This document shows, piece by piece, positions 36,932-56,158 of a DNA stretch of 64,000 nucleotides (positions within the stretch are counted from its first letter, which is position 1; every line of letters starts with the position of its first letter). The translations under genes were made by a program, and so were the position numbers. The notes under the pieces were generated by a model. The model did not search any database. It was given only the letters and a program-made list of their open reading frames with translations, and was not told where the DNA came from. The DNA is from Bacilli bacterium (GTDB lineage Bacteria > Bacillota_I > Bacilli_A > ML615J-28 > CAG-698). Location: contig JAQUZE010000004.1 in assembly GCA_028691515.1 (NCBI GenBank), positions 26,667-90,666 on the forward strand. Reading direction: 5' to 3'.

Positions 36932-36937
36932 ATATTT

Positions 36938-37154
36938 AGGGTCTGGGGAGTACGCGTTTTTATAGATATGCGGACCGAACACTTTTATATAGGATATTGA
37001 GGTATAGTGGGTGTTGAATGCTTAGTTTATCTAAGAATCCCGATACTATGCAAAAATAGAGATAACCACTTTTTAAGAATGTGGTTTCACATGATAATAA
37101 CGGCTTCCCGGATCAATTTTAAAATAGATAATAATATTGTCTATTTTTTTATTT
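36938..37154 (+). ncRNA. candidate ~200-nt structured small RNA (class unassigned; 6S-like closed-helix architecture possible)
   Basis: It has its own extended -10 promoter. A 12-bp terminal helix is formed by 36940-36951 (GGUCUGGGGAGU) and 37103-37114 (GCUUCCCGGAUC), with G-U wobbles. Internal hairpins include CTTAG-tttat-CTAAG and AACCAC-11nt-GTGGTT. The 3' hairpin AATAGA-11nt-TCTATT is followed by a T-run (37123-37154). There is no coding potential. Confidence 0.4.
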
Positions 37155-37159
37155 AGCTT

Positions 37160-37195
37160 TTAGTTATCAAAGATGGAATTATATGATATAATAAT
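37160..37195 (+). promoter_or_regulatory. probable argS promoter (-35 TTATCA, 17-nt spacer, -10 TATAAT) overlapping the 5' end of the six-frame ORF
   Basis: The sequence ttatcaaagatggaattatatgaTATAAT is followed by the RBS GGAG and the ATG at 37216. Confidence 0.45.
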
Positions 37196-37215
37196 AACAT
37201 ATATGGAGAAAATTA

Positions 37216-38855
37216 TGATTGAAGAAGTATTAAGAAGAATTGAAGAAAAAATAAAAACTATTGTTATTAAGTTATATAGTAAAGAGTTAGATGTTTTTTT
37301 TGAAGTGCCTAAGGATTCAACTTTTGGGGATTATTCTGTAAATGTTGCTATGAGACTTGCAAGAGAATTAAAGAAAAATCCTGTTTTAATAGCAAAAGAA
37401 ATTGTTAAACTAATAAATTTAGAAGAACTTAAATTAGAACGAGTAGATGTTAAGGGAAGTGGATTTATTAATTTATTTATTGATAGACATTTCTTACATG
37501 AAGTTGTTTTTTTAATTAATAAAGAAAAAGATAACTATGGTAATTTAAAAATCGGACAAAAAGAATATATTAATTTAGAATTTGTAAGTGCAAATCCCAC
37601 TGGATATTTACATATTGGCCATGGTAGAGGAGCTGCTTATGGTGATTCACTTGCTAGAATACTTAGAAAAGCTGGATATAGAGTCTCTACTGAGCATTAT
37701 GTAAATGATGCAGGAAAACAAATAGAAAATTTAACAAATAGTATCTATGAAAGATACAAAGAATTATTTGGTTTTGATATTAATTTAAAAGAAGATTATT
37801 ATCATGGTAAAGAAATAATTGAAATTGCAAAGCTAATTAAAGATGATAATGGTGATTATTTTTTAGGTAATGATTGGTTTGAGTATTTTAGAACATTTGG
37901 ATTAGATTATTTGCTTAATGGTTTAAAAAAAGATTTGAATGATTTTAATGTAGTTTTTGATAATTGGTTTTCTGAAAAATCATTATATGATAATAATGAT
38001 GTTGAAAAAACTTTGAATTTTTTAGTTGATAATGCTTATACTTATGAACTAGATGGTGCTGTTTGGCTAAAAACTACAATGTATGGAGATGAAAAAGATA
38101 GAGTTTTAGTAAAAAGTGATGGTAATATGACTTATTTATTGCCTGATGTTGCTTATCATTATAATAAATTGTTAAGAGGTTATACTCATCTAATTGATGT
38201 TTTGGGTAGCGATCATCATGGTTATGTTCCAAGATTAAAAGCTGCAATTGCTTTTGTGGGGGGAAATCCTGATTTATTAGATGTAGAAATATTGCAAATG
38301 GTTAGAGCTATACAAGATGGTAAAGAAGTAAAAATGAGTAAACGAAGTGGAAAGTCTATTACTTTAAGAGATTTAATTGATGAAGTTGGAAGTGATGCTT
38401 TAAGATATATGTATATTTCTAAATCATTATCAACACATATGGATTTAGATCTTGATTTAGCAATTAAAAATACTAATGAGAATCCAGTATTTTATGTGCA
38501 ATATGCTTATGCCAGAATTTGCTCTTTATTTTCAATATTAAATGATAGAGGTTTAGAATTTAAAGAAGTGACAAAATTTGAGTTAATTGATTTTAATAAA
38601 TCATCAAAGATTGTCTTAGATCTTATTCAATATCCTCAATATATTGAAGAGGCTGCTCTTAAAAGACTACCACATAAAATTTGTCAGTATGTTTACTCAC
38701 TTGCGTCTGATTTACATAGTTATTATAATGATGAAAAAATTATCACGGATAATATTTTAGAAATGAATGAAAAATTAACATTATTAAAGGCGGTTCAAAT
38801 AGTTTTAAAAAATAGTCTTGAGTTAATTGGTGTAAAAGTAAAGGAGAAAATGTAG
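37216..38855 (+). CDS. argS: arginyl-tRNA synthetase (start trimmed from 37173 to 37216)
   Basis: The class I HIGH motif is present (PTGYLHIGHGRGAAYGD). A KMSKS-like MSKRSGK is present. The N-terminus MIEEVLRRIEEKIK fits the ArgRS Add-1 domain start. The upstream in-frame codons lie inside the promoter -10 box. Confidence 0.9.
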
Positions 38856-38856
38856 T

Positions 38857-39522
38857 ATGGTAAACTTGTTTAAAAAATATTTATGGGTATTTGAGTGGGT
38901 AGGAGCAGCAATATTAATTGGAATTGGTATTACAGTTGCTATTGTTGATCCAATAGTTTACGTTGTAACAGGTATTATTTTAACAATTTTTGGATTATTT
39001 AGAGTGATTCCTTTAGTTAGAACAACAAAAGCTAAAACGATGAAAATTATTTTAACTGTAGAAGTAGGTTTGAATATTATATTAGGTGGATTATTAATAT
39101 TTTTTGGCTTAAAAGAGAATTTTGATTTAAGCACTTTAAATAATATATATGGTTATTTATTAGGAGCAATTTTATATTCACGAGGAGTAATATATTTTCT
39201 TGGTACAAGTATTTATCAAGAAAGGACTTCACCAGTTTTATTTCTAGCTCATATTGCGTTTATTACTTTGGGGACTTGGTTTATTTTATCTGGAAATCTT
39301 ACAAGTGAAAAATTAGGCTTTGCTATTTTAGGTTTAGCTATTTTAGCAGCATTAATATTAATTTTACATGGTTCGAGAGGCTATAAGAGTTATCGTATTG
39401 ATTCTTTATCTAAAGATGAAACAAAAAGCATTAAAACTAAAGAACAACCTATAAAAAGTGATAAAAAAGATATAATTGTTGATAAGGAAGAACAAAAGAG
39501 AGAGGAGAATATAATTAATTAA
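38857..39522 (+). CDS. hypothetical polytopic membrane protein with charged C-terminal tail
   Basis: There are five to six hydrophobic helices with repeated small-residue motifs. The C-terminal 50 aa is Lys/Glu-rich. It is tightly packed between argS and an M42 peptidase. Confidence 0.5.
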   Translation: MVNLFKKYLWVFEWVGAAILIGIGITVAIVDPIVYVVTGIILTIFGLFRVIPLVRTTKAKTMKIILTVEVGLNIILGGLLIFFGLKENFDLSTLNNIYGYLLGAILYSRGVIYFLGTSIYQERTSPVLFLAHIAFITLGTWFILSGNLTSEKLGFAILGLAILAALILILHGSRGYKSYRIDSLSKDETKSIKTKEQPIKSDKKDIIVDKEEQKREENIIN

Positions 39523-39524
39523 TT

Positions 39525-40604
39525 ATGAATAAAAATGAATTAAAGTTATTAAAAAACATTTCAGAAATTGATGGTGTAAGTGGTCATGAAAAAGAAATTC
39601 GTGAGTTTATAAAAAATGAATTTCTTAATGTTGTTTCAGAAGAAAATATTTCATATGATAGACTAGGTTCTATTATTGCGAAAAAAGAAGGACTTAGTGA
39701 TGGCCCTAAAATTTTGATAACAGGACATATGGATGAAATAGGTATGATTGTTACTAAAATTACTGATGAGGGATTTATTAAATTTCAAACTATTGGTGGT
39801 TGGTGGAGTCAAGTAATGTCTAGTCAAAAGTATACTATTACAACAACTAAAGGCAAAAAAGTTAGAGCTGTTATAGGTTCACTTCCTCCACATATTTTAC
39901 AAAAAGAACAACTTGCAAAACCTGTTGATGTGAAAGATATGTTTATGGATATTGGGGTTAAAAATAGGGAAGAGGCTGAAAAGTTAGGAATTAAAATAGG
40001 AGATTCAATTACTCCGTATACAACTTTTGAACAAATGGGTAATAAGAATTATTTACTTGGCAAAGCTTGGGATGATAGAATTGGATGTGCAATTGCCATT
40101 GATGTCTTAAAAGAATTAAAAGAAGTAAAACACCCCAATATAGTATATGCAGCAGGAACTGTCCAAGAAGAGGTTGGTTGTCGAGGAGCTAAAACTGTAG
40201 CTCAAATTGTTAATCCTGATATTTCTATTGCTTTAGATACTGGAATTGCTTTTGATGTGCCTGGAACTGATGGTCATGTAAAAATAGGTGATGGTCCTGT
40301 AATGTTGGTTTATGATGGAGGATTAATTGGTCATTTAGCATTACGAGAAAAAATGATGGAAATTGCTGATGAATTAAAAATTCCTTATCAGTTAGATCAT
40401 TTGCAACGTGGGGGCACTGATGCTTCACAAATGCATCTTGTTCATGATGGTGCACCTTCAATGTCATTTATTGTAGCTACACGTTATATTCATGGACATA
40501 CTTCAGTTATCCATTATGATGATTATAAAAATGCTGTAAAAATCATTGTGGAACTTATTAAAAGACTAGATAAAGATACTGTTAATAAAATAACTTTTGA
40601 TTAA
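39525..40604 (+). CDS. M42 family glutamyl aminopeptidase (FrvX/YsdC/PepA-like)
   Basis: The metal-binding context is present (LITGHMDEIGMIVTKITDEGFI). The motifs WDDRIGCA and QEEVGCRGA are present. Length is 359 aa. Confidence 0.85.
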   Translation: MNKNELKLLKNISEIDGVSGHEKEIREFIKNEFLNVVSEENISYDRLGSIIAKKEGLSDGPKILITGHMDEIGMIVTKITDEGFIKFQTIGGWWSQVMSSQKYTITTTKGKKVRAVIGSLPPHILQKEQLAKPVDVKDMFMDIGVKNREEAEKLGIKIGDSITPYTTFEQMGNKNYLLGKAWDDRIGCAIAIDVLKELKEVKHPNIVYAAGTVQEEVGCRGAKTVAQIVNPDISIALDTGIAFDVPGTDGHVKIGDGPVMLVYDGGLIGHLALREKMMEIADELKIPYQLDHLQRGGTDASQMHLVHDGAPSMSFIVATRYIHGHTSVIHYDDYKNAVKIIVELIKRLDKDTVNKITFD

Positions 40605-40622
40605 GGATTTAAATTTTAAATT

Positions 40623-40656
40623 AAGCTGGAATATTAAATTTATTCCAGCTTTTACT
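40623..40656 (+). terminator. Rho-independent terminator after the M42 peptidase gene
   Basis: The hairpin is AAGCTGGAAT-attaaattt-ATTCCAGCTT, followed by TTT. Confidence 0.65.
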
Positions 40657-40722
40657 TAAATAATATTCAGTTTAAATATTGAAAATAGTTACTATTTGTG
40701 ATAATATATTTTAGTAATAAAT

Positions 40723-40799
40723 GCGCCTATAACTCAACTGGATAGAGTATCTGACTTCGAATCAGAAGGTTACGAGTTCGAATCTTGTTAGGCGTGCCA
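40723..40799 (+). tRNA. tRNA-Arg (anticodon UCG as read from the loop CUUCGAA)
   Basis: The 77-nt cloverleaf has acceptor GCGCCUA/UAGGCGU, D stem ACUC/GAGU, anticodon stem UCUGA/UCAGA and T arm ACGAG-UUCGAAU-CUUGU. Discriminator G and CCA are encoded. Confidence 0.75.
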
Positions 40800-40802
40800 G
40801 AT

Positions 40803-40878
40803 GGCCTGTTGGAGAAGTGGTTAACTCATAAGCCTCTCAAGCTTACATTCACGGGTTCAAGTCCCGTACAGGTCACCA
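40803..40878 (+). tRNA. tRNA-Glu (anticodon CUC as read from the loop CUCUCAA; isotype assignment tentative)
   Basis: The 76-nt cloverleaf has acceptor GGCCUGU/ACAGGUC, anticodon stem UAAGC/GCUUA and T arm ACGGG-UUCAAGU-CCCGU. A 5-nt variable loop is present. The CCA end is encoded. Confidence 0.65.
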
Positions 40879-40891
40879 TAAAACATTAATA

Positions 40892-40928
40892 CTCTGCTAT
40901 TCATAATTTGAGTAGCGGAGTTTTTATT
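40892..40928 (+). terminator. terminator after the tRNA pair
   Basis: The hairpin is CUCUGCUA-13nt-UAGCGGAG (one G-U), followed by TTTTTATTT. Confidence 0.55.
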
Positions 40929-41195
40929 TATTTCTATATAAATAAATACAATTAGAATAATTAATTTTATAATGATATTTTAATATATTAACTTAATATG
41001 TTATAAAAATTCTTAAATTGCTTGTTTATTGTATTTTTGATACAATATAGTCATAATGTAAAAATAAATAGCTTTTTAAGTATTAATTACTTGTTATAAA
41101 TGTTGTTTTGAAGTAAAATCTTTTTTAGCATTTTTTTCTTTTTAAATGATGTAGGTTATAGTTAGATGAGGCGGTTATTATGGGGTTAATTAGTA

Positions 41196-44100
41196 ATGTT
41201 AGAAGAATATTTAAAAAAAAATAGAATAACAGAAGTAAAACCAAGTGAAATTGAAAAAGTTACTAAATCATTTTTACTATTTTTTGATTTTATAAACAAG
41301 CCAGTTAATAGAAGTAATTTTATAAATACTTTAATAGGAAGAAATAATTCTTTAAAAATGAAAGATCAAACTTCTATATTCGGTTCTTTGAATGATTTAA
41401 ATTATGATGCTGTAAAAAAATATCTATTTTATTTTATTTCTCTAGATTATATTTCTATCGTTAAACATAGTAGTTATACTTTTATAGTTAAAAATAATAA
41501 AACTAAGAATTTAATAAGGGATGTAAATAACTTTGATATTAATTCATTTAAAATGCCTAATGACGAAAATAATTTTATTAATATATATATTAGAGATTTA
41601 GATAGTAAAAAATCAAATCTTATTGATGAAAAAATAGTACAAAATAATAAATTTTCAAATGTAGAGGAAATAAATTACGATAAAAAACTTTATGATATCC
41701 TTGCTAAGAAACGGAGCGACATTGCTTTGGAGCGTAATATTCCATCTTATATGGTTGTGAATAATCAAACGCTAAAGTTAATAACAGAAATAAAGCCAGT
41801 TACTGAGGAATCTATGCTAAGTATTTATGGTATGGGAAAAAAGAAATTTGATTCTTTTGGGAACCAATTTTTGAATCTTATAAAATTATACTTAATAAAA
41901 AATGAAGAAGAACAATATGTAGATTCAATGAGTGATTTAAACTATATATTTTCAGGAAAAAGGTTTATTTCAAAAAAAGAAATTGAAGAAATATATAATC
42001 TTTATAATAAAAATGAAATTAAGAAAAATCAAAATTATGATAAATATTTTGAGAATTTAAAAATACTAGAGGATTTTCGTGAATTATATAACGAGAAGTT
42101 TGTAAAACAAAAATTAATTGAAGAAAAACAGTATCTTGATTCAATTCTTGAAGTTGTTGATCCTGTGATTAAATTAGATAAAAAACAAAGAGAAGTAGTT
42201 TTAAGAGATGAAGATTATACTCTTGTGGTTGCTGGAGCTGGTTCAGGGAAAACTACAACAGTAGCCGCAAAAGTAAAATATTTAGTTGATAAGAAAAAAA
42301 CATGTCCAGAAAAGATTTTAATTGTATCCTATACTAATAAAGCAGTTGATGAATTAAAAGATAGAATTAACAAACAACTGAAAATACCTGCCATTATTTC
42401 TACTTTTCATAAGGTTGGCTATGCTCTCGTTAAGAAGACAAGAGATAATGAGCAGATAAAAGTTGCTCGTGATGCTATTACATATAATATTATTAGAGAA
42501 TATTTAAATGTTTATTTAAAAAATAAACCAGATGAATTAAGAGCTTTAATTATGTTTTTTGGTTATTATATTGATGCTCCTATTTCAGGTACAGACATAG
42601 AGAGTTTTATTAGACATTTTCAAAGAAATGATTTCACAACTTTAAAAACGAATATCAAGCAGATCACTGAGCAGTTAATTGATAATAAAGCTGCTAATAA
42701 GAGTTCTATTCAGCATGAAGTTATGCGGTCACTAGAAGAAGTTCAAATTGCAAACTTTTTATATTTAAATAGTGTAGATTATGAATACGAAGCCTCTTAT
42801 CCCTTTGTTTTAGAAGGCTCAAGTAAAATTTATACTCCTGACTTTACAATTCGTTATAAAGATAAAGTTATTTATTTAGAACATTTTGGGATTAGTCAAG
42901 ATGGTAAATGTTCACGATATACTGAATCAGAATTGGAACGATATAAAAAAAATATTAATGATAAAATATTACTACATCGCAAAAGGAACACAATTTTAAT
43001 TTATACATTTTCTACATATATTGATGGAAAAGATTTATTACAACACTTAAAAGAATTGCTAGAACAATCAGGAATTGAATTAATTCCAAGATCAGTTAGT
43101 GAAGTTTATAAAACAATAGCAAATGAAGAAAGCAATAAATATTTTAATAGGTTTGTATTTTTTGTTAAGGATTTTATTTCTTCTTTTAAAACTAATGGTT
43201 ATACTGAAAAAGATTTTGAAAAATTAATGAATAAAACTGATAATGTAAGAATTCGTTTATTTTTAAACATTTGTAAACCAATATATATGCATTATCAAAA
43301 AGAATTATATGAAAACAATTTTTTAGATTTTGAAGATATGATTAATGAATCTGCAAGATTATTAGAAAATCCAGAATTTATAAAACAAATACCTGAATTT
43401 GAATATGTTATTATTGATGAATATCAAGATATTTCGCGACAAAGATTCGACTTAACAAAAGCTCTGTCTGATTTGACAAAAGCTAAACTAATAGCAGTTG
43501 GGGATGATTGGCAATCAATTTTTGCTTTTGCTGGATCAAGAATTGATTTATTTTTAAAATTCAAGGGATTAATGGGTTATGCTGATTATTTAACTATTGA
43601 TCATACATATAGAAACGCTCAAGAAGTGATTAATATTGCTGGTGATTTTATTCAAAAAAATAGTAGTCAATTAAAGAAAAATTTAATATCACCAAAAAAT
43701 ATCGATATTCCAATAATTTTATATGAATATAACGATATTACATATAAAAATGAAATTAAAGGTTATAAGGGGATTATTATTGAAAAAGCGAAAATACTTA
43801 ATAAGATAATTAGTTCTATATCAAGACAATATGGTACAAACCAAACAATAGCTGTTTTGGGTAGGTATAATTTTGAAGAACAACAATTAACTAAGACAGA
43901 TTTATTTTATTTAGATAAAAAAGCTAATTTAAGATCAAAAAATTTTCCTAAAGTAAAACTAATTTTTTCAACAATTCATAATTCAAAAGGATTAGGGTTT
44001 GATAATGTTATTATTTTAAATGGCAGTAATGAAGTTTATGGTTTTCCGTCACAAATTGAAATGGATCCTATTTTTAAATTGGTTAAATATTATGATCAAA

Positions 44101-44573
44101 CTATTAGTTATGCTGAGGAAAGAAGGTTATTTTATGTTGCTTTGACAAGAACAAAAAATCAAGTACATATTCTTTATCCTAAAACTAAACCTTCTTCGTT
44201 TGTTTTGGAACTTGCAAATAATTATGATTTAGTAAAACATCCTTCAGATATTACTGAAAAAGCACCATTACAAGATCGTAAAGATAAATTATGTCCAATT
44301 TGTGGTTATCCTTTACAATTGAAAAAAAATAGAGCATATGGGTTTAGGTTATTTATGTGTTCTAATGAGCCAGAACTTTGTGGATATTTAACTAACAACT
44401 TAAGAAGTGGTAAAGAAAGTATATCAAAATGTACAGAGTGTATGACAGGATATTTGGTTGTTAAACATTCTATAAAAAAAGATCAATACTTTTTTGGATG
44501 TACAAATTATAGAAAAGATGGTAAAGGATGTAACAAAACAAAACCTATTGATTACAGTGATGCAAATAAATAA
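41196..44573 (+). CDS. multidomain UvrD-like SF1 helicase: N-terminal RQC-like winged helix + HRDC domain, helicase core with ~250-aa nuclease-like insertion, C-terminal topoisomerase-type zinc ribbons
   Basis: The HRDC-like segment is KLYDILAKKRSDIALERNIPSYMVVNNQTLKLITEIKPVTEESMLSIYGMGKKKFDSFGNQF. The Walker A is VVAGAGSGKTTTVAAKV. Motif II is VIIDEYQDIS. Motif III is AVGDDWQSIFAFAGS. Motif V is STIHNSKGLGFDNVIIL. Motif VI is RRLFYVALTRTKNQ. The insertion between Ia and II contains YTPDFTIRYKDKVIYLEHFG. Two Cys4 ribbons are present (CPICGYP...CSNEPELCGY and CTECMTGY...CTNYRKDGKGC). Confidence 0.8.
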   Translation: MLEEYLKKNRITEVKPSEIEKVTKSFLLFFDFINKPVNRSNFINTLIGRNNSLKMKDQTSIFGSLNDLNYDAVKKYLFYFISLDYISIVKHSSYTFIVKNNKTKNLIRDVNNFDINSFKMPNDENNFINIYIRDLDSKKSNLIDEKIVQNNKFSNVEEINYDKKLYDILAKKRSDIALERNIPSYMVVNNQTLKLITEIKPVTEESMLSIYGMGKKKFDSFGNQFLNLIKLYLIKNEEEQYVDSMSDLNYIFSGKRFISKKEIEEIYNLYNKNEIKKNQNYDKYFENLKILEDFRELYNEKFVKQKLIEEKQYLDSILEVVDPVIKLDKKQREVVLRDEDYTLVVAGAGSGKTTTVAAKVKYLVDKKKTCPEKILIVSYTNKAVDELKDRINKQLKIPAIISTFHKVGYALVKKTRDNEQIKVARDAITYNIIREYLNVYLKNKPDELRALIMFFGYYIDAPISGTDIESFIRHFQRNDFTTLKTNIKQITEQLIDNKAANKSSIQHEVMRSLEEVQIANFLYLNSVDYEYEASYPFVLEGSSKIYTPDFTIRYKDKVIYLEHFGISQDGKCSRYTESELERYKKNINDKILLHRKRNTILIYTFSTYIDGKDLLQHLKELLEQSGIELIPRSVSEVYKTIANEESNKYFNRFVFFVKDFISSFKTNGYTEKDFEKLMNKTDNVRIRLFLNICKPIYMHYQKELYENNFLDFEDMINESARLLENPEFIKQIPEFEYVIIDEYQDISRQRFDLTKALSDLTKAKLIAVGDDWQSIFAFAGSRIDLFLKFKGLMGYADYLTIDHTYRNAQEVINIAGDFIQKNSSQLKKNLISPKNIDIPIILYEYNDITYKNEIKGYKGIIIEKAKILNKIISSISRQYGTNQTIAVLGRYNFEEQQLTKTDLFYLDKKANLRSKNFPKVKLIFSTIHNSKGLGFDNVIILNGSNEVYGFPSQIEMDPIFKLVKYYDQTISYAEERRLFYVALTRTKNQVHILYPKTKPSSFVLELANNYDLVKHPSDITEKAPLQDRKDKLCPICGYPLQLKKNRAYGFRLFMCSNEPELCGYLTNNLRSGKESISKCTECMTGYLVVKHSIKKDQYFFGCTNYRKDGKGCNKTKPIDYSDANK

Positions 44574-44685
44574 TTTTAAGTTTAAATAATAAATACAATA
44601 GTTAAACTAATTCTTTTATAGATTTGACTATTTATATACATTAATATATACTTAAATTATAAGTGTTAAATTTAGGAGGTAATTT

Positions 44686-45945
44686 ATGGCTAAAATTAAA
44701 GATGTAGAAATAGTAAATTCTCATACGATTAAATTATTGTCTGACGCTAATAAAGGTGATGAAATTGATTTATTAGAAATAAGTCAAATAGATACTTCAA
44801 TAATTTTGGAAAAGATTGATGCTGAGACAGATAAAATATATAATAAAAAATTAAATGATTTAAAATTACAGATGCAATCAGATAGTAATCTAAAAATGAT
44901 TGAAGCTACAAAAAAATTAGAAGATGAGATATTGAAACTTAAGACATTGTTTGAAACCAAAGAAAAAGAAATTACTATGTCTTTAGAATCAAAATTCATT
45001 GTTGAAAAAGGGAAATTAGAAAATCAAATTGCTCTTTTAAAAAGTGAAAATGAATCATTTGAAAGTAAAAAAGAATCTGCAGTTAATGAAGTGAAAAATA
45101 AATTAGAAAATGAACTATTGCAAGTACAACAAAAGTATAGTTCACAAATTTATGAGCAGAAAGAAAAAATTTCTAATTTAGAATTAACGAAATCTCTATT
45201 AAGTATAAAGAAAATTGGAGAAAAATTAGAAGAATGGTGTAATCAAGAATATTTAACTCATGAAATAAATGGTTTTGATAATTGTACTTGGGAAAAGGAT
45301 AATATCTCTATAAAAGATGAATTTTCTTCTCGAGCCACTAAAGCTGATTATATTTTTAAAGTTTATTCAAGTAACATTAAAGATGAATCAACTCTATTAA
45401 CATCTGTTGCTTGTGAAATGAAGAGTGAAGATCCTACTTCTTTAAATAAAAAGAAAAATTCTGATCATTATGCTAAATTAGATAAAGATAGAATAAAAAA
45501 GAATTGTGAATACGCGTTATTAATTAGTGAATTAGAATGGGAAACAGATAATGATGCCCCAATTAGAAAAGTAGTGGAATATGATAAAATGTATATGGTT
45601 AGACCTCAATACTTTATTGTCTTTTTAAGTATTATTACAGCATTAGGAAAAAAATATCACGATGTTATTAATGAACATAATATTCAAAAAGAACAATTTA
45701 AAGAAACAGAAGAAATAGTAGAAGAATTTGAGAAAATGAAAAATCAAATTTTATCTCATTCTATTAGACTTTTAGAAAAACACGCAAATAGTATTATAGA
45801 CAATGCACAAAAGATTGAAGGCTTATCAAATAATATACTAGAATCTGGAAGGTTGATAATTAATACATATCTTGATCAAATTAAAAATAAAATTGAAAAT
45901 TTTAATATAACAAAAATTAATAAAAAAATTGATAAAATTATTTAA
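44686..45945 (+). CDS. coiled-coil protein with C-terminal PD-(D/E)xK-like nuclease motif (family unassigned)
   Basis: The 419-aa protein has a strong AGGAGG RBS. Residues ~40-200 are heptad-rich (KLNDLKLQMQSDSNLKMIEATKKLEDEILKLKTLFETKEKEI...). The C-terminal globular region has KADYIFKVY...(20 aa)...LTSVACEMKSED, a candidate D...ExK catalytic arrangement. No P-loop is present. Confidence 0.6.
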   Translation: MAKIKDVEIVNSHTIKLLSDANKGDEIDLLEISQIDTSIILEKIDAETDKIYNKKLNDLKLQMQSDSNLKMIEATKKLEDEILKLKTLFETKEKEITMSLESKFIVEKGKLENQIALLKSENESFESKKESAVNEVKNKLENELLQVQQKYSSQIYEQKEKISNLELTKSLLSIKKIGEKLEEWCNQEYLTHEINGFDNCTWEKDNISIKDEFSSRATKADYIFKVYSSNIKDESTLLTSVACEMKSEDPTSLNKKKNSDHYAKLDKDRIKKNCEYALLISELEWETDNDAPIRKVVEYDKMYMVRPQYFIVFLSIITALGKKYHDVINEHNIQKEQFKETEEIVEEFEKMKNQILSHSIRLLEKHANSIIDNAQKIEGLSNNILESGRLIINTYLDQIKNKIENFNITKINKKIDKII

Positions 45946-45954
45946 ACTGAAATA

Positions 45955-45988
45955 AAAAACGTGATTTAAAAATCACGTTTTTATTTAA
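45955..45988 (+). terminator. Rho-independent terminator closing the two-gene module
   Basis: The hairpin is AAAAACGTGATTT-aa-AAATCACGTTTTT, followed by ATTT. Confidence 0.75.
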
Positions 45989-46037
45989 ATTTTCAACAAT
46001 TTAATACTAATCTATGTTATAATAATTAACAAATGAG

Positions 46038-47084
46038 GTGATAGAAATGCGTAAATTTTTATATGAAATGCTTGAGACAGCATCCGTTTCTGGAAATGAA
46101 ATTAATTTACAAAAGGTTGTAATTAAATATATGAAATCAGTTAGTGATAAAATCATTACTGATCATGCAGGTGATGTTATTTGTGTAATTAATCCTGAGG
46201 CTAATTTTAAAGTTTTGCTTGCTGCCCATAGTGATGAAATAGGTCTTACTATTGTTGAAATATTAAATGATGGTAGAGCTCTATTAAAAGAAGTGGGGTC
46301 TATTAAAGCTGGAGTTTATCCTGGACAAAAAGTAAGAGTTATTACTGACAAAGGAGAAGTTTTTGGAGTTGTTGGTTTTGATCAGTTTACATTTAAAAGT
46401 GAAATTACTGACAAAAATTTAATTTTAGATATTGGCGTATATTCAAAAGATGAAGCTGAAAAAATAATTACCATTGGTGATTCAGTTATACTTGATAGTA
46501 ATTATCGCGAACTTAATGATAATATTATTAGTGCTAGAGCTCTTGATGATAAAATTGGTGTTTATTCTATTATGGAAGTTTTAAAAAAATCAAAGGATAT
46601 TAATAAAGAAATTGGTGTATATTGTGCTAGTACTGTTGGTGAAGAAACTACAAAAGCAGGGGCTACTTTTGTTAGTAATTTGGTTAAACCAAATTGTGCA
46701 ATTATTATTGATGTTACTCATGATAGTTCCATAATGTTAAATAAAGGAAATAGAGAGTTTACTATGAATGGTAAAGGCCCCGTTTTATCAATTGGCACAG
46801 TTATTAATAAAGAATTTGTAAAGAAAGCCCAAAAGGCAGCTAAGAATAAAAATGTTTCATTACAAGTTTCTACTGAAGTATATAGAACATATACTGATTT
46901 AGATAAAATATATTTTAATGAATCAGGTATTCCTAGTTTATTAATTAGTATACCTTTACGTTATATGCATTCAAGTGCTGAACTCGTAGATATGAATGAT
47001 GTTAATGATATTATTTCATTAATTACTGAAATAATTGAATTATTAAAAACAGATAGAAATTTTAATCCTTTTGAGTTGCTATAA
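46038..47084 (+). CDS. M42 family aminopeptidase (second paralog)
   Basis: The motif LLAAHSDEIGLTIVEILNDG is present. The context SARALDDKIGV is present. Length is 348 aa. The start may be the ATG at 46047. Confidence 0.8.
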   Translation: MIEMRKFLYEMLETASVSGNEINLQKVVIKYMKSVSDKIITDHAGDVICVINPEANFKVLLAAHSDEIGLTIVEILNDGRALLKEVGSIKAGVYPGQKVRVITDKGEVFGVVGFDQFTFKSEITDKNLILDIGVYSKDEAEKIITIGDSVILDSNYRELNDNIISARALDDKIGVYSIMEVLKKSKDINKEIGVYCASTVGEETTKAGATFVSNLVKPNCAIIIDVTHDSSIMLNKGNREFTMNGKGPVLSIGTVINKEFVKKAQKAAKNKNVSLQVSTEVYRTYTDLDKIYFNESGIPSLLISIPLRYMHSSAELVDMNDVNDIISLITEIIELLKTDRNFNPFELL

Positions 47085-48646
47085 TGAAAACTTTATATAT
47101 TAATGGAAAGATTTTCACTCCAAATGGATTTAAAAAATGTTTGCTTGTAGAAGATGGTGTAATTAAAGAAATATATGACGTTAATAAAAAAATAACAGGA
47201 GTGAAAACTGTTAATTTAAAAAACAATGTTTTAATCCCAGGGTTTAATGATTCTCATTGTCATTTGTTTAGTCTAGCAAAGATTAATTCTCAGTTAGTTT
47301 TAAATGATGTTTCTTCAATTGATGAAATTATTATTAAAGGCAAGAAATTTATCGACGACAATCCAGGTATTTCTTTTGTTTTTGGCAGAGGATATAATGA
47401 TGATTTGCTTTTGGAAAAACGGATTTTAAGAAAAACGGATTTAGATAAAATATCAAAAGAAATTCCTATTATTATAACAAGAGTATGTGGACATGTTCAA
47501 ACTATTAATAGTAAAGCTATTGATTTATTGGGTTTAAAAATTACTGATAAAATTGCTGGTGGGGAAATAGAAGTGTTTGGTAATGAATTAAGTGGCGTGC
47601 TTTATGAAAATGCCATGAATTATACGGAAGAATTTTTTCCTTTATATGAAGTAAGTGTTGTAAAAACATTATTATTGAAAGAAATAAATAAGGCTAATAC
47701 TTTAGGTTTAACTTCAATTCAAACAAATGATATTAATGTTAATGATAAAAATTATACAATTATTTTAAATGCGTATAAAGAGTTATTAGAAGAAGGCAAT
47801 CTAAACATTAGAATTACTTTACAATCAACATTTAATGATATTGATGAGTATATTAAATTTAAATATTTAATTGAAAATAATGATTTTTTAAAAATAGGTC
47901 CACTTAAAATTTTTTTAGATGGTTCTTTAGGAGCTCAAAGTGCTTATATGAAAAATCCTTATAAAAATGATAAAAGAAATTTTGGTATTAGTTGTTATAC
48001 TAATGATGCTCTTTATTCAATTATTAAGAAATCTCGTGAAGAAGGAGTTTCTATTATAGCACATGCTATAGGGGATGCAGCAGTTGAACAATTTTTAGAT
48101 TGCAAAGAAAAAGTATATGGTAAGACTAATCCTAATAGATTAGGATTAGTCCATTGTCAAATTACAAACGAAGATTTACTTTTTCGTATTGGAGAATTAA
48201 ATGTATTAGTTTATGCGCAACCTATTTTTATTGATTATGATATGGATATTTTGAATTTATTAGTAGATAAAAAAACAGCTAATAGTTCTTACGCTTTTAA
48301 TACTTTAAATAAAAAAACAATAGTATCATTTGGAACTGATGCTCCAGTAGAAAGCTTAAATTGTTTCAAAAATATTTTTTGTGCAGTAACTAGATACAAT
48401 TTAAAACAGACTAAACAATTAAATCCTAGTGAAGCCTTTACAGTTAATGATGCAATAAAGGCTTACACTTATAATTCAGCATTTATGAGTTTTGATGAGG
48501 GCTACTTAGGTTTAATTAAGGAAGGATATGCAGCTGATTTTATAATTTTAAGTAAAGATATTTTTACTATCGATACAAGTGAATTACAATCTATTAATAT
48601 TCTTAGAACTGTTGTGGGTGGCAAAGAAGTATACATAAAGGAATAA
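47084..48646 (+). CDS. amidohydrolase-3 family metal-dependent hydrolase (YtcJ-like)
   Basis: The motif PGFNDSHCHLFS (HxH metal site) is present. The motif IIAHAIGDAAVE is present. The C-terminal motif FGTDAPVE is present. Length is 520 aa. Its start overlaps the stop of the M42 gene (ATAATGA). Confidence 0.8.
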   Translation: MKTLYINGKIFTPNGFKKCLLVEDGVIKEIYDVNKKITGVKTVNLKNNVLIPGFNDSHCHLFSLAKINSQLVLNDVSSIDEIIIKGKKFIDDNPGISFVFGRGYNDDLLLEKRILRKTDLDKISKEIPIIITRVCGHVQTINSKAIDLLGLKITDKIAGGEIEVFGNELSGVLYENAMNYTEEFFPLYEVSVVKTLLLKEINKANTLGLTSIQTNDINVNDKNYTIILNAYKELLEEGNLNIRITLQSTFNDIDEYIKFKYLIENNDFLKIGPLKIFLDGSLGAQSAYMKNPYKNDKRNFGISCYTNDALYSIIKKSREEGVSIIAHAIGDAAVEQFLDCKEKVYGKTNPNRLGLVHCQITNEDLLFRIGELNVLVYAQPIFIDYDMDILNLLVDKKTANSSYAFNTLNKKTIVSFGTDAPVESLNCFKNIFCAVTRYNLKQTKQLNPSEAFTVNDAIKAYTYNSAFMSFDEGYLGLIKEGYAADFIILSKDIFTIDTSELQSINILRTVVGGKEVYIKE

Positions 48647-48649
48647 ATT

Positions 48650-50140
48650 ATGAAAAGAAGTTTTTTTGAATATAAAGATAATCAATTATTATTAATGGAT
48701 ACTAAATTATTAGAAGTTGATTGCGTAATTATTTCAGCAAGTTCTCTTTTAAAAGCAATGGAGAATAGTAATTTTAATGAGGAAATATTTAATGAGTTAA
48801 TAAGTAATAAATCAATTTATATCAAAGTTAGTTTTCAAAATTATATAAGTACAAAGAAGATTTTAAATAATGATAATTTTCCTTTTATTTCAGGATTTTA
48901 TCTTGAAAATGTAGAATCAAAGTTTTTAAATAAAATGACAGATTTTTCTAGATGTTATGAAAAAGAACATAAGTTGAACTTTGGTTCATTAATCTTTATT
49001 GGAGAAATTTCTACTCCTAAAGCAACAATGGAAATAAAAAAAATTTGTAACTATGATCGTCTTTCTTTTTTAACATTTAATGTATTTAAATTTAAAGATT
49101 ATATTGGTGTTAATACTATCGATAAGATGCATTATTTTAATAAAATATTAGAGTGTGCTTTTTATTATAAAAAGTTTATTTTGTTACATGGTGTAAATTC
49201 TATAAATGAGTATAAAAATTTAGGAATAATTGGCGCAATAACTGATAATATCTTGGAAGTTACTACAATTAATGATATCTTTACTCCAAATGAAAAAGAG
49301 ATTAAAGAAGCTGACCTTTATTTAAATATGTATTTAGAGCATCAAAAAACTCATTCCAAAAAGCAATATTATAATTTTAGTACAAATAAATTACTTTATT
49401 ATAATCTGATTTTAGAAAGAGCATACATATTAAATAAAAATTATAAGGTGAATAGTCTTTCATTAATAAATAGTAATATTTCATTATTAAAAACAAAAAA
49501 ACAAGAAATTAGTAAATTTTATACTTTTGGTGAAGAATTAGGGAATTCTATTACTCATGGGATTGGCATTATTGCTGGTGTTGTATTCTTAATTTTGTTA
49601 TTGATTAAAGTAAATAATAATTATAATATAGTAAACTTTATGGCTTATTTAATATATTCTCTTAGTGTGATTGTTTTATATACTTCCTCTTTTATTTATC
49701 ATTTATTACCTTTGGGTACAAGAGCAAAGATGATATTTCAGCGTTTTGATCATATGACTATTTATTTACTTATTGCTGGCTCATATACACCTTTTGCTTT
49801 AATAGCGTTAGGAGGATTATCCGGTATTATTTTAGCAAGTATTATTTGGTTTGGTGCTATAAGCGGATTATTATTAAACTTATTTTGGTTTGGAAAATTT
49901 AGAGGATTTCATATTTTTTTATATTTACTATTAGGATGGGCAGCGCTATTTTTTATAGTTCCTATTATAAGAGGGTTAGGAACAACTGGGACAATTTTTT
50001 TATTTGCTGGAGGAGTCAGTTATACTATAGGCATTATTTTTTATAGTTTTAAATTATTTAAATTTACACATATGGTATGGCATTTGTTTGTATTGTTAGG
50101 AACAATTCTCCATTTCCTTGGTATTTATTTGTGTTTATAA
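48650..50140 (+). CDS. hemolysin III/PAQR-family 7-TM protein with ~290-aa N-terminal soluble extension of unknown function
   Basis: The C-terminal 200 aa has the Hly-III core (GNSITHGIGIIAGVVFLILL, YTSSFIYHLLP, FQRFDHMTIYLLIAGSYTPF). The N-terminal extension (MKRSFFEYKDNQLLLMDTKLLEVDCVIISASS...) matches no family I can name. Confidence 0.7.
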   Translation: MKRSFFEYKDNQLLLMDTKLLEVDCVIISASSLLKAMENSNFNEEIFNELISNKSIYIKVSFQNYISTKKILNNDNFPFISGFYLENVESKFLNKMTDFSRCYEKEHKLNFGSLIFIGEISTPKATMEIKKICNYDRLSFLTFNVFKFKDYIGVNTIDKMHYFNKILECAFYYKKFILLHGVNSINEYKNLGIIGAITDNILEVTTINDIFTPNEKEIKEADLYLNMYLEHQKTHSKKQYYNFSTNKLLYYNLILERAYILNKNYKVNSLSLINSNISLLKTKKQEISKFYTFGEELGNSITHGIGIIAGVVFLILLLIKVNNNYNIVNFMAYLIYSLSVIVLYTSSFIYHLLPLGTRAKMIFQRFDHMTIYLLIAGSYTPFALIALGGLSGIILASIIWFGAISGLLLNLFWFGKFRGFHIFLYLLLGWAALFFIVPIIRGLGTTGTIFLFAGGVSYTIGIIFYSFKLFKFTHMVWHLFVLLGTILHFLGIYLCL

Positions 50141-50232
50141 AAAATTTAAAGTTTTTGCTTTAAATTTTTTTATGGATAATTCTAATGAAAAAATGGATTA
50201 AATATGATAAAATGTAAAATAAGAGGTGGATT

Positions 50233-53200
50233 ATGAGTAAAAACAAAAAATTTTTGGATTTATTAAATGAATTAGATATAAATATTCCAGAAGAAGCAGT
50301 TACTGGAGAACTTACATCAATTTTAATAAACCACAAACTTTCTACTTTTACTTTTTCATTTAAATTTTTAGAAATTCCTAAAGTAGATTTTTTAAATGAA
50401 TTAATAGCAAAAGTTAATCATGTTTACATTAAAAAATTTAAAATTAAAGAAATAAAATTTAAATTTATTTATAAAAATAAATTTATTAAAGAAGCTTATC
50501 TTGAAGAATATTATATATATATATTAGATAAATTAAGTGAGTATAGACCTCATTTTACTATGTTTAATGCTTTTACTAAAAATTTTAGTGATAATAAAAT
50601 AGTATTTTATGTGGGTTGTAATAATGATCAAAAAGTAATTGAACAATTTATTGATGCATTTAAAAAAGGTTTTAATATTTATTCTCTTGATTTTATAAAT
50701 ATTGAAACAGATATTTCTCCTTTTGAAAAATCAATTGAAGAAGAGATAAAGTCAAAAATAGAAAGTATATCAGCAACTATTAATAGAGAACAACAAGTAT
50801 TTGATGGGTTAAAAAATAAAAATAACAATAAAGGAAGCACTCCGTTAAGGAGTATAAAGCCGAAATTACCAATTAACGGTAAAGCCACGCCTTTAAATGA
50901 ATTACCTTCTACAAATGCTCAATTGATTGAGTATCAACAAAAACATAGTTCTAGTAGTTTTGTTGTTGAGGGTGATTTAATTCAAGCAGAAATTAGACCT
51001 GTTACTGGTTATAATTTATTTCAAGGGGTTATTTTTGATGGTGAAAGTTCTTTAGTGATTAAATCATTTATAAGTGAAAATAATATTCAGCATTTGTCTT
51101 TTTATAAAACAAATTGTCTTGTTGGTAAAAAAATTAGAATATATGGATCTTTGCAATATGATAAATATAGTAAAGATTTAACTTTGAGTGTTCAAGATGT
51201 AATTCCTTTAGGAGATGCTCTTAAAAAAACTCGTCAAGATAATTACCCTAATAAAAGAGTAGAACTTCATGCACATACAAAAATGAGTGCTCAAGATAGT
51301 GTAATGGATGTTAATGAATATGTAGAATTAGCTAAAAATTTTGGACATAAAGCATTAGCTGTTACTGATCACGTATCTTTACAAGCTTTACCAGATTTTG
51401 AATCTGCATGTAAAAATTCAGATATTAAACCTATATTTGGTTTAGAGGGGAATTTAATCAAAAAATCTGAATATAAAATTTGTTTGTCAGATTTAGATGA
51501 TGACATTAATCTAAAAGATGCGAGTTATGTTGTATATGATTTAGAGACAACAGGATTATCTAGTAATTATAATGAGATTATTGAAATATCTGCTGTTCGC
51601 ATTAAACATGGAATTATGATTGATGAGTTTTCAACATTCGTAAAACCGAAAAACCCCATTCCTAAGTATATTACTAATTTTACTCATATTTCTAATGATG
51701 ATGTTAGAAATTCTAAAAGCATTGAAGAAGTATTACCTGATTTTATAGATTTTATTGGCAATTCAATTTTGGTTGCTCATAATGCCAGATTTGATAATTC
51801 TATGTTATATGCTAATATGAAAAATATTGGATTATATTTTAAGCCTTTTCCAACAATAGATACACTACAATTAGCTAAAAATTTTTATTCAGATAGATTA
51901 AAAAGATTTAATTTGAAAGCATTAAGTAAATTTTTTGATGTTGATTTAGTACAACATCATCGTGCTATTTATGATACAAGGGCAACTGCTGGTATTTTTA
52001 TTAAAATGTTGAATGAATTAAAAGAGCAAAATATTATTACTTATAATAGTATTAATAAACATATTACAAAAGAGGTTTATCAAACAATTATTCCTTATAA
52101 TGTTACTTTAATTGCTAAAAATAGAAAAGGAATGGTTAATTTAAATAAAATAGTTTCTGATTCATCAACTGTTCATTTTTATAGGGAGCCTAGAATTTTA
52201 GAAGATTTTCTACTTAAGCATAAAGAAGGTTTATTAATTGGTAGTGGTTGTCAAGATGGCGAAGTTTTTATAACTGCTTTTAATTCATCAGATGAACAAT
52301 TAAAAGAAGTAATTTCATTTTATGATTATATTGAAGTTCAACCTCCTAAACAATATAGATACATGTTTTCTGATATTTTTAAAGTTTATGAAGAAGATGA
52401 AGATGATGATAATAACTCACTTATTGAAGAACATCAAGAATTAGAAGAAGAATACATGAGTTATGTATATGATACAATAAATAGAATTATTAAAATAAGT
52501 AAAGAATTAAATAAACTTGTAGTTGCTACTGGTGATGTTCATCATTTAGATAAAGAAGATGTAATGTTAAGAGCAATGTTTGTTGAAGCGCCACAAGTAG
52601 GAGGAGGAATACATTATTTAGCTAGAGCTGGAGAACTAGTTTCTCAACATTTTATGTCAACTGATGAAATGATGGCTGAATTTGCATTTTTAGATAGTGA
52701 AGAAGCATTTAAAATTGTTGTGGAAAATACAAATATTATTGCAGATATGATAGAAGAGTTTACTTTATTCCCTAAGGGTTTACATGCACCTGCAGATAAT
52801 TTTTTTGCAGATAAAGGTATCCCTTCAATGAAAGAAGCTTGTATTAAATTAACTTATGAAACTGCAAAAAAAATATATGGAGAAAACATTCCTAAATATG
52901 TTTTGGAAAGATTAGATAAAGAACTAAATAGTATAATTGGAAATAATTATGCTCCAATATATTACGTTTCTTATTTATTGGTTAAACATAGTACAGATGC
53001 AGGATATATTGTTGGCAGTAGAGGTTCAGTGGGTTCCTCATTGGTTGCTACATTTATGAAAATAACAGAAGTTAATCCATTGCTTCCACATTATGTTTGT
53101 AAAAACTGTCATTATAGTGCTTTTAAACTTACAAGTAAACAAAAAGAAAAATATGGTATTGAGCCTTATCCTGCTTATATTGAAAATGCACTTCAAAGTG

Positions 53201-54783: not shown

Positions 54784-54830
54784 GATTATTTTAATAATAT
54801 AATATATAATATATATGAGGTGAATAAATT

Positions 54831-55565
54831 ATGAGAATATATAATTCAAATCCTGCATTTAAAAAAATAAACAAAGCAGAATATACAGCTAGTTATGAAA
54901 TTGCAACATATAAAGGCATCGCTAAGAAAACTTTATTTTATTTATTACTAGTTTTGGTTGGTGCATTTGGTGGATTATTTTTAATTGCAAATAATCCTCC
55001 TATTGGAATAGCAGTTTTTATTGGATCATTTATTGTATCTTTAATAAGTGGTTTAATTGCTTTAATGATACCTAAAGCTACAAAAATAGCTGGTTCAATT
55101 TATTGTTTATTTCAAGGAATATTTGTTGGTGTAATATCAATGACATTTGCTGCTGAAACAAATGGTATTGTTCCTGCGGCTTTACTAGGAGTTATAACTG
55201 TTTTTTTAATTGTTACTACATTATATGTAACAAGAATTGTAAAAGTTACTAATAAATTTATGAATTTCTTATTTATATTTGCAATATCTTTCATTATTAC
55301 AATGGTGGCTTTATATTTGTTTTCAATATTTGGACAATTTGAATTTAGTTTGCCAATAATGGCTTTAATATCAGGAATTTCAGTAATTTTAGCAACATTT
55401 TATTTGTTTATGGATTTAGAGCAAATTAGAATGGTTGTTGAGGGCGGATATCCAAAAGAATATGAATGGCATTCAGCTTTTGCATTATCATATACCCTTA
55501 TTTGGCTTTATATAGAATTACTTAGATTAATCTTTATATTATCAAGAATATTTAGCAGAAATTAA
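54831..55565 (+). CDS. Bax inhibitor-1/YccA family membrane protein
   Basis: The 244-aa protein has 7 predicted TM helices. The N-terminal pattern ...YEIATYKGIAKKTLFYLLLVLV resembles YccA/YetJ. Confidence 0.55.
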   Translation: MRIYNSNPAFKKINKAEYTASYEIATYKGIAKKTLFYLLLVLVGAFGGLFLIANNPPIGIAVFIGSFIVSLISGLIALMIPKATKIAGSIYCLFQGIFVGVISMTFAAETNGIVPAALLGVITVFLIVTTLYVTRIVKVTNKFMNFLFIFAISFIITMVALYLFSIFGQFEFSLPIMALISGISVILATFYLFMDLEQIRMVVEGGYPKEYEWHSAFALSYTLIWLYIELLRLIFILSRIFSRN

Positions 55566-55625
55566 TAAAAATTAAGAGGAATAATTCCTCTTTTTTTGTT
55601 ATAATATGAGATGAGGTGAAAGGGA

Positions 55626-56057
55626 ATGAAAATCTTAGTTTTAAATGGTCCTAATATTAACTTTATTGGAATAAGAGAGAAGAATATTTATGGAGAAAAA
55701 AATTATAAATTTTTAGTAAAAAAAATACAAGATCATGCTAAAAAGTTAAAAGTAAAAGCAAAAATTATACAAAGCAATCATGAAGGATTTTTAATTGATT
55801 TAATACAAAAATGTTATTTTAAAAAATATGATGCTATAATTATTAATCCAGGAGCATATACTCATTATTCTATTGCTTTGTTGGATGCATTAAAGTCTGT
55901 TTCACCAATTAGAATAATTGAAGTTCACTTAAGTGATATTTTCAATAGAGAAATATATAGAAATAAGTCATTAATTAGTGAAGTTTCAGAAAAAGTATTT
56001 TTTGGGAAAGGAATAGATAGTTATTTAGAAGCTATAGATTATTTATTAATTAAATGA
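55626..56057 (+). CDS. aroQ: 3-dehydroquinate dehydratase, type II
   Basis: The N-terminus MKILVLNGPNINFIGIRE is present. The motifs IINPGAYTHYS and HLSDIFNRE are present. Length is 143 aa. Confidence 0.9.
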   Translation: MKILVLNGPNINFIGIREKNIYGEKNYKFLVKKIQDHAKKLKVKAKIIQSNHEGFLIDLIQKCYFKKYDAIIINPGAYTHYSIALLDALKSVSPIRIIEVHLSDIFNREIYRNKSLISEVSEKVFFGKGIDSYLEAIDYLLIK

Positions 56058-56158
56058 TAACGTTATACATTTTTTGTAAAGCGTTTTAACTTGAAATTAA
56101 GGACAAATAATGGTATTATATATATGATAAATTAAAATCATAAGGAGGTTTTTAATAT

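Follow-up and report, generated by a model that had tools for sequence, protein, structure and literature searches.

We analysed a stretch of 64,000 nucleotides (nt) from a Bacilli bacterium (GenBank assembly GCA_028691515.1, contig JAQUZE010000004.1), called here the window, and more precisely an interval in which two genes for aminopeptidases of family M42 (M42-1 and M42-2) enclose a pair of tRNA genes, a helicase gene and a gene for a protein of family DUF2130. The GC content of the window is about 26–27%, its + strand carries nearly all the genes, and its GC skew is positive. The closest public sequences are metagenome-assembled genomes (MAGs) named 'Bacilli bacterium', and farther kin are found among Acholeplasmatales, Tenericutes and 'Bacilli' MAGs. 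A first-pass annotation, made from the sequence alone, had described the order M42-1, tRNA-Arg, tRNA-Glu, helicase, nuclease and M42-2, and had proposed that the genes in the middle were inserted at a tRNA hotspot between two tandem peptidase genes. All the members of this order are present, at or near the places assigned to them. The features are as follows (loci from other genomes and metagenomes carry L numbers).

37173–40604, + strand: left synteny block, i.e., argS (37173–38855), a gene for a protein of 221 amino acids (aa; 38857–39522) and M42-1 (39525–40604), by Pfam and NCBIfam
39525–40604, + strand: M42-1 aminopeptidase (Peptidase_M42, E = 1.5e-103)
40723–40799, + strand: tRNA-Arg(TCG), by ARAGORN and Rfam (66.5 and 62.7 bits for the tRNA pair)
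40803–40878, + strand: tRNA-Glu(CTC), by ARAGORN and Rfam (bits as given for the pair)
40879–41195, no strand: spacer between tRNA-Glu and helicase, 317 nt, 18.6% GC, from the sequence
40891–40921, + strand: terminator-like hairpin with a 13-pair stem and a T-run, after the tRNA pair, from a terminator scan
41196–44573, + strand: helicase of superfamily 1 (SF1), 1125 aa, by Pfam and NCBIfam
44574–44685, + strand: spacer between helicase and DUF2130, 112 nt, with a promoter-like site (TTGACT-17-TATACT) at 44624–44652
44686–45945, + strand: DUF2130 protein, 419 aa (PF09903, E = 1e-40, 140.2 bits against a cutoff of 26.7 bits)
45955–45982, no strand: bidirectional terminator-like hairpin 3′ of DUF2130, from the terminator scan
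46013, no strand: left limit of DNA colinearity with L092 (blastn), 34 nt upstream of the M42-2 ATG
46047–47084, + strand: M42-2 (Peptidase_M42, E = 1e-63; GTG at 46038 according to the open reading frame finder)
46047–54783, + strand: right synteny block, i.e., M42-2 (46047–47084), amidohydrolase (47084–48646), HlyIII-family fusion (48650–50140) and PolC (50233–54783), by Pfam

The genes at the left of the interval form a conserved block. Scanning genome and metagenome contigs with M42-1 returned conspecifics (100% identity), the next matches being at most 66% identical, and the comparison set for this block comprised about 45 loci, drawn from some 20 related lineages with M42-1 identities of 54–66%. 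The order ArgS, 221-aa protein and M42-1 is kept in every one of these relatives with a long enough contig; DegV is often found upstream, and tRNA-Arg(TCG), tRNA-Glu(CTC) or both are usually found 3′ of M42-1. Beyond the tRNAs, at least eight distinct gene sets occur across these lineages, and no gene of the 64-kb window was found there in any of the loci. In partial support of the proposal, the helicase/DUF2130 segment is specific to the lineage, since it is missing at the tRNA site in every non-conspecific relative examined. In seven deep-branching lineages, the tRNAs are followed by ylmE-sepF-ylmH-ileS-deoC-PNP. The other occupants of the flank are GGDEF-HD sensors, PEPCK, a zinc alcohol dehydrogenase, an MFS transporter, Big_2 surface proteins, BspA-type LRR proteins with alanine dehydrogenase and transhydrogenase, and an acyltransferase with an MFS protein. 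Neither an integrase, a transposase nor a defence domain was found among the downstream proteins of relatives that we checked. Moreover, the tRNA pair is inverted in one clade (L004, 6093–6250; L009/L117, 11519–11673; L116, 2250–2404), and this inversion directly shows that the flank has rearranged locally. The hotspot proposed by the first-pass annotation thus holds for the repeated change of gene order but not for mobile cargo: the flank holds mostly housekeeping genes, and hence behaves as a rearrangement breakpoint, not as an integration hotspot. We conclude that it is a recurrent synteny breakpoint of the clade. Synteny breakpoints are known at tRNA and rRNA genes of bacterial chromosomes, and this is the category that the interval fits best, with a block ending at the tRNA pair, its many downstream arrangements and the inverted pair; nothing distinctive sets it apart from them.

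The genes at the right form a second block. M42-2 has kin at 79–84%, 63% and 54% identity. The order M42-2, amidohydrolase, HlyIII, PolC, BaxI and AroQ is conserved in L092–L095 (the 83% lineage), where the block is kept at 70–83% amino-acid identity; it is partly kept in L097, L099 and L117. At the DNA level, positions 46013–56707 of the window are colinear with L092 9967–20676, with 80.7% identity over 10.7 kb (blastn), and to the left of 46013 the similarity between L092 and the window is not above chance. The genes found upstream of M42-2 are a flavin reductase, a TetR and two MMPL genes in the 83% lineage, none of which is present in the window, and, in the L097/L099 set, a GHL10 protein in the 63% lineage and a sugar-phosphate phosphatase in the 54% lineage. 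Hence, M42-2 heads its own block, with a variable upstream neighbour. In public MAG annotations this gene starts at the ATG at 46047 and encodes 345 aa, the GTG at 46038 being the call of the open reading frame finder; an exact look-up of the protein begun at the GTG gave no match, the annotated product beginning at the ATG, which is the most likely start. The two M42 genes therefore sit in two separately conserved synteny blocks, which contradicts an insertion between tandem paralogs. Such an insertion also called for an empty site, i.e., a relative in which the tRNAs and the two M42 genes stand side by side, and none was found in any relative examined; nor were the tRNAs found directly next to M42-2 in any relative, those of the left block being at most 66% identical for M42-1.

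The position of DUF2130 directly upstream of M42-2 is shared with another lineage. L102, a short contig, is colinear with window 44617–46103 at 75% DNA identity, and this match starts inside the helicase–DUF2130 spacer (at 44617) and spans DUF2130 (69–72% amino-acid identity) with its terminator hairpin, reaching 19 codons into M42-2. The DUF2130–M42-2 adjacency thus goes back to before the divergence of what are today clearly separate species. The gene upstream of DUF2130 in L102 ends with KIQVNPE* and fits no helicase C-terminus compared. M42-2 forms a star of five lineages with pairwise identities of 79–84%, and DUF2130 forms a parallel set at 67–72%; this parallel divergence is what would be expected under vertical descent of a faster-evolving gene. 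Judging from these alignments, DUF2130 seems to belong with the right block as one of its old members. The L092 lineage possesses M42-2 with no DUF2130 upstream, and the outgroup lineages (M42-2 at 63%, 54% and 51%) also have no DUF2130 upstream of M42-2, which would mean that DUF2130 was gained there at some earlier time. A hairpin of L092 (about 9912–9935) resembles that of the window at 45955–45982: both stand equally far upstream of M42-2, and their arms agree at 17 of 21 positions. The L092 hairpin would fit a loss of DUF2130 in this lineage and may be a remnant of the deletion. A trace of the DUF2130 3′ end was looked for in the DNA preceding M42-2 of L092; the whole region scores at chance (244 of 300 shuffles scored at least as high) and only the hairpin looks alike, which makes it a lead.

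In our reading, to which we give a probability of about 0.65, two chromosomal blocks, each conserved independently of the other, meet in this interval, which is not a mobile element inserted in a tandem gene pair. The left block (DegV, ArgS, 221-aa protein, M42-1, tRNA-Arg and tRNA-Glu) would end at the tRNA terminator, and the right block would start at M42-2 and run through the amidohydrolase and HlyIII to PolC. In the window species, the two blocks would have been joined with two co-oriented genes, helicase and DUF2130, between them. DUF2130 would already have stood directly upstream of M42-2 in the ancestor common with the lineage at 75% DNA identity, and either the L092 lineage would have lost it or its gain would postdate the separation from that lineage; the helicase would be a lineage-specific neighbour, separate from DUF2130. 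The join presumably took place via an ordinary chromosomal rearrangement at a tRNA flank that often changes. The two genes are separately distributed and encode DNA-processing enzymes, which probably act in the repair or recombination of DNA or in restricting foreign DNA.

Several observations weigh against this reading. The segment occupies the classical position of an island, exactly 3′ of a tRNA gene (tRNA-Glu ends at 40878 and lineage-specific DNA follows the terminator at 40921), and homologs of both genes are found in defence-island-like neighbourhoods (L088, L089 and L101), which are often mobile. In L117, the two M42 types are only 4 kb apart, and an older proximity of the blocks with variable cargo is conceivable; our neighbour-joining tree is unsupported and star-like, and does not show L116/L117 as sister to the window lineage. 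Finally, no relative of 85–95% identity, which would show the genus-ancestral state of the tRNA flank, was found for the left block. With the junction of two blocks as the preferred reading, the finding is largely ordinary: the junction is specific to this lineage and falls where synteny breaks repeatedly, and its significance beyond annotation is small. It illustrates that an island-like, tRNA-adjacent helicase/nuclease segment can be a compositionally native block junction in a fast-rearranging, very AT-rich, Acholeplasmatales-like lineage.

We regard as unlikely, while taking it seriously, that an old integrative islet, consisting of the helicase with or without DUF2130, inserted 3′ of tRNA-Glu, its integrase and att sites having since been lost and its composition ameliorated. 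The segment is indeed immediately 3′ of the tRNA and lineage-specific at this site, DUF2130 appears to have been gained at some time (three outgroup lineages being without it upstream of M42-2), homologs occur in defence islands, and a stop codon (K90*) in one conspecific population suggests that the helicase is dispensable. However, the signatures of integration are missing. As the first-pass annotation had noted, the interval contains no integrase: its only genes are the helicase and DUF2130, neither of which has a recombinase domain, and the open reading frames of at least 60 aa within 40879–46037 are these two and one antisense frame of 71 aa nested in DUF2130. It had likewise noted no direct repeat of the tRNA 3′ end, and we found that repeats are at chance (4 shared 11-mers against 3.0 expected for the tRNA region, and 1 shared 12-mer against 0.86, with none in the tRNA body). 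It had also counted an ordinary composition against its own proposal, and helicase and DUF2130 proved native, both lying within about 1.1 standard deviations of the 38 window genes for GC content, GC at the first and third codon positions (GC1, GC3) and leave-one-out codon-usage likelihood; GC skew is continuous through the interval. The tRNA–helicase spacer, described as about 270 nt long and extremely AT-rich, measures 317 nt, and its 18.6% GC is ordinary, since the 18 intergenic regions of at least 80 nt in the window span 12–29%. An Rfam search of this spacer matched no family, and its promoter-like sites (41037–41065 and 41091–41119) are matches not above shuffle expectation; the terminator scan gave 3 sites against 0.8 expected.

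Variation within the species does not favour an islet either. The eight conspecific contigs are colinear without indels and all carry the segment, so that no presence/absence polymorphism is seen; their divergence is uniform, at 0.1–0.3%, the helicase showing 7–9 differences over 3,378 nt and the flanking genes 0 to 0.6%. Moreover, an empty site was found in no relative examined, housekeeping genes occupy the same site in relatives, and the DUF2130–M42-2 pair is common to the lineage at 75% identity. Neither gene was found in genuine phage genomes: the helicase matches are short virome fragments or generic PcrA-like genes, and DUF2130 has no phage match, with distant matches on viral contigs (29–36% identity) and plasmids (about 35%). 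The segment thus resembles tRNA-associated integrative islands, which have an integrase and an att repeat, by its place 3′ of a tRNA and by DNA-processing enzymes of the kind found in defence islands, but differs from them in having no integrase, repeat, deviant composition, polymorphism or empty site, and in the housekeeping genes that relatives hold at its site. What survives of the island proposal is its weakest form, an old and non-canonical gain. The first-pass annotation had itself cautioned that any insertion would be "old or non-canonical", which fits the data; the empty site, the deviant composition and the degenerate att repeats by which it was to be recognised all failed to appear.

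The two middle genes could also be viewed as a unit. It is improbable, in our opinion, that they are co-transcribed as a two-component DNA-targeting system of defence or repair, analogous to Gabija, Hachiman or AddAB. They are co-oriented with a gap of 112 nt, no terminator lies in this spacer and a single one lies 3′ of DUF2130, the ATPase motifs of the helicase are intact and the putative nuclease triad of DUF2130 is invariant, and in L101 a different nuclease (HNH) follows the helicase. On the contrary, the pairing is seen in none of the seven non-self contexts. The two non-self contexts of the helicase lack it: in L088 the homolog is followed by a tiny open reading frame and a second UvrD-like gene, and in L101 by the HNH nuclease. 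The five contexts of DUF2130 (L089, L090/L091, L193, L194 and L102, the upstream gene of the last ending unlike the helicases compared) lack it as well. In addition, DUF2130 has a promoter-like site of its own, and the colinearity of L102 begins within the spacer. DUF2130 has no PADLOC match, and the matches of the helicase to GajB profiles probably reflect generic UvrD homology (E = 1.5e-46, the UvrD core only, in two or three separate stretches), with GajA absent. Helicase and DUF2130 are therefore not a conserved two-gene module.

Membership in Gabija was rejected, no GajA (OLD-family ATPase plus TOPRIM nuclease) being adjacent. The likeness is limited to a helicase that matches GajB profiles and adjoins a putative nuclease; the neighbour is a PD-(D/E)XK protein of family DUF2130 and not an ATPase-TOPRIM GajA, and GajB is without the RQC/HRDC and zinc-ribbon domains that the window helicase has. 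We would give equally little credence to a looser arrangement, i.e., an uncharacterised, loosely coupled pair acting against foreign DNA or in recombination control at a tRNA-flank hotspot, in which the helicase would work with interchangeable nucleases. The candidates for such nucleases are DUF2130 in the window, HNH in L101, and HRDC-fused Mrr or NERD near homologs elsewhere. As a separate observation, fusions of HRDC to nucleases near homologs (Mrr_cat-HRDC in L088, 14787–15643, and NERD-HRDC in L089, 1–66) echo the HRDC of the window helicase.

The two M42 genes share about 28% identity and are hence ancient paralogs. The statement of the first-pass annotation that such genes are commonly tandem in Firmicutes holds for distant taxa but not for the clade of the window. 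Indeed, adjacent arrays of two or three M42 genes are present in 71 of the 157 M42-containing loci, all from distant taxa (Firmicutes, Chloroflexi and others), and no tandem array was found in the lineages whose M42-1 is at least 54% identical. Every array member scores higher with M42-1 than with M42-2. We examined 31 triplets; in 22 of them M42-1 and M42-2 find their best match in different genes, and in 21 of these 22 the M42-2-like member stands upstream of the M42-1-like one, which is the reverse of the window order. The sole exception in the clade is L116/L117, where M42-1 is followed at a distance of 4 kb by a second, M42-2-like gene (51% identity); the two M42 genes of this lineage are separated by the tRNA pair in inverted orientation, an acyltransferase gene, an MFS gene and a small open reading frame. 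This is the nearest thing to the configuration that was predicted, yet the cargo is different and non-mobile and there is no empty site. That M42-1 and M42-2 are former neighbours of an ancient tandem array, separated by insertions, is very improbable and was rejected on gene order: the arrays of distant taxa and the 4-kb distance in L117 speak for it, but array members are all nearer M42-1 than M42-2, the informative triplets have the opposite order, the nearer lineages have no array, and ylmE-sepF-ylmH-ileS follows M42-1 in the lineages that branch deepest in the clade. Adjacent M42 triplets, common in distant Firmicutes, Endomicrobia and Chloroflexi (L024–L080 and L130–L182; e.g., L025 8949–11969), may be a reflection of hetero-oligomeric TET-like peptidases.

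The DUF2130 protein is, from its motif and predicted structure, a putative PD-(D/E)XK nuclease with a coiled coil. Residues D221, E244 and K246 are invariant among 42 aligned homologs and form a D...ExK motif. In the AlphaFold model (pLDDT 83), a small beta domain at the N-terminus is followed by a helix of about 155 residues, then by an alpha/beta core and, at the C-terminus, by a second long helix; the top Foldseek matches of this model are all PD-(D/E)XK nucleases, albeit weak ones, and a sequence search for a solved relative found none. The family is listed in the PD-(D/E)XK superfamily, with function unknown (PMC3424549). In the model, the succession of a long coiled coil and a putative restriction-endonuclease-like core with D...ExK recalls the layout of RmuC-type coiled-coil PD-(D/E)XK nucleases, a likeness of layout only, DUF2130 being a separate Pfam family.

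In L090/L091 and in the complete Mycoplasmatota genome L193, the homologs of DUF2130 stand alone amid housekeeping genes, and in L194 the homolog is near GmrSD and MoxR/VWA-like genes. The homolog of L089 is in a genuine defence island; the gene directly upstream of it encodes a DRT UG5-nitrilase reverse transcriptase (E = 3e-166), and the gene before that a Mokosh-like helicase with DUF2726 (E about 1e-52). This island (L089 1–13423) also holds the NERD-HRDC protein, HIT, HNH and MazG-like proteins and an Nhi-like helicase. The homolog on plasmid AP014720.1 of Arthrobacter sp. Hiyo8 is annotated 'uncharacterized protein MG148', a label hinting that a protein of the Mycoplasma genitalium minimal genome may be a member of the family; a literature search turned up nothing relevant to it. 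With its invariant triad, its coiled coil and its presence both in a defence island and among housekeeping genes, DUF2130 is a reasonable candidate for functional study.

The helicase comprises N-terminal RQC/HRDC domains (residues about 40–230), a core resembling UvrD and helicase IV (327–1000) and a C-terminal CxxC...C...C zinc ribbon (1079–1112), in agreement with its Pfam matches (UvrD-helicase, 1.5e-46; HRDC, 5e-16; UvrD_C; Zn_ribbon_Top1). Motifs I, II, III and VI are intact (GSGKT349, DEYQD741, GDDWQ769 and VALTR981), and the nearest solved structures are PcrA and UvrD. This ATPase core comes closest to those of E. coli helicase IV (HelD) and the PcrA-UvrD-Rep group of SF1A, but the window helicase differs from helicase IV by its RecQ-type RQC/HRDC and topoisomerase-type zinc ribbon, and by a score of 289.3 bits against the NCBIfam helicase IV model (PRK11054 equivalog), below the cutoff of 543 bits, the best-matching stretch being profile positions 349–676 only. 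The closest homologs are 61–63% identical and lie on equally AT-rich contigs. In the conspecific metagenome population Ga0265293_10004701, the helicase allele carries the K90* stop (AAA to TAA, window 41463–41465; L085 11672–11941) and three missense changes besides; the stop may mean that the helicase is dispensable or may be a sequencing or assembly variant. The RQC/HRDC, UvrD and zinc-ribbon architecture is distinctive and makes this helicase, too, a reasonable candidate for functional study.

Three observations concern the flanking blocks. Throughout the clade, the 221-aa protein (38857–39522) keeps strictly to its place between argS and M42-1, at about 32–44% identity, and it has no Pfam, NCBIfam, PADLOC or PHROG match. 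In the right block, the 48650–50140 product joins the HlyIII/TrhA-family membrane domain (residues about 295–494) to some 290 additional residues at the N-terminus, for which there is a weak AAA/RFC-like match only; this fusion is kept in L092 at 70% identity. Clade-wide, tRNA-Arg(TCG) lies two genes 3′ of argS (window 37173–40799; L001–L018 and L105–L127), a linkage of a synthetase with its cognate tRNA. Lastly, a 6S/SsrS RNA gene lies between degV and argS (36937–37118, + strand; RF00013, 51.7 bits against a gathering threshold of 46.4, E = 1.5e-9), and it is because of this gene that the GC content of the degV–argS spacer (29%) is high for the genome.

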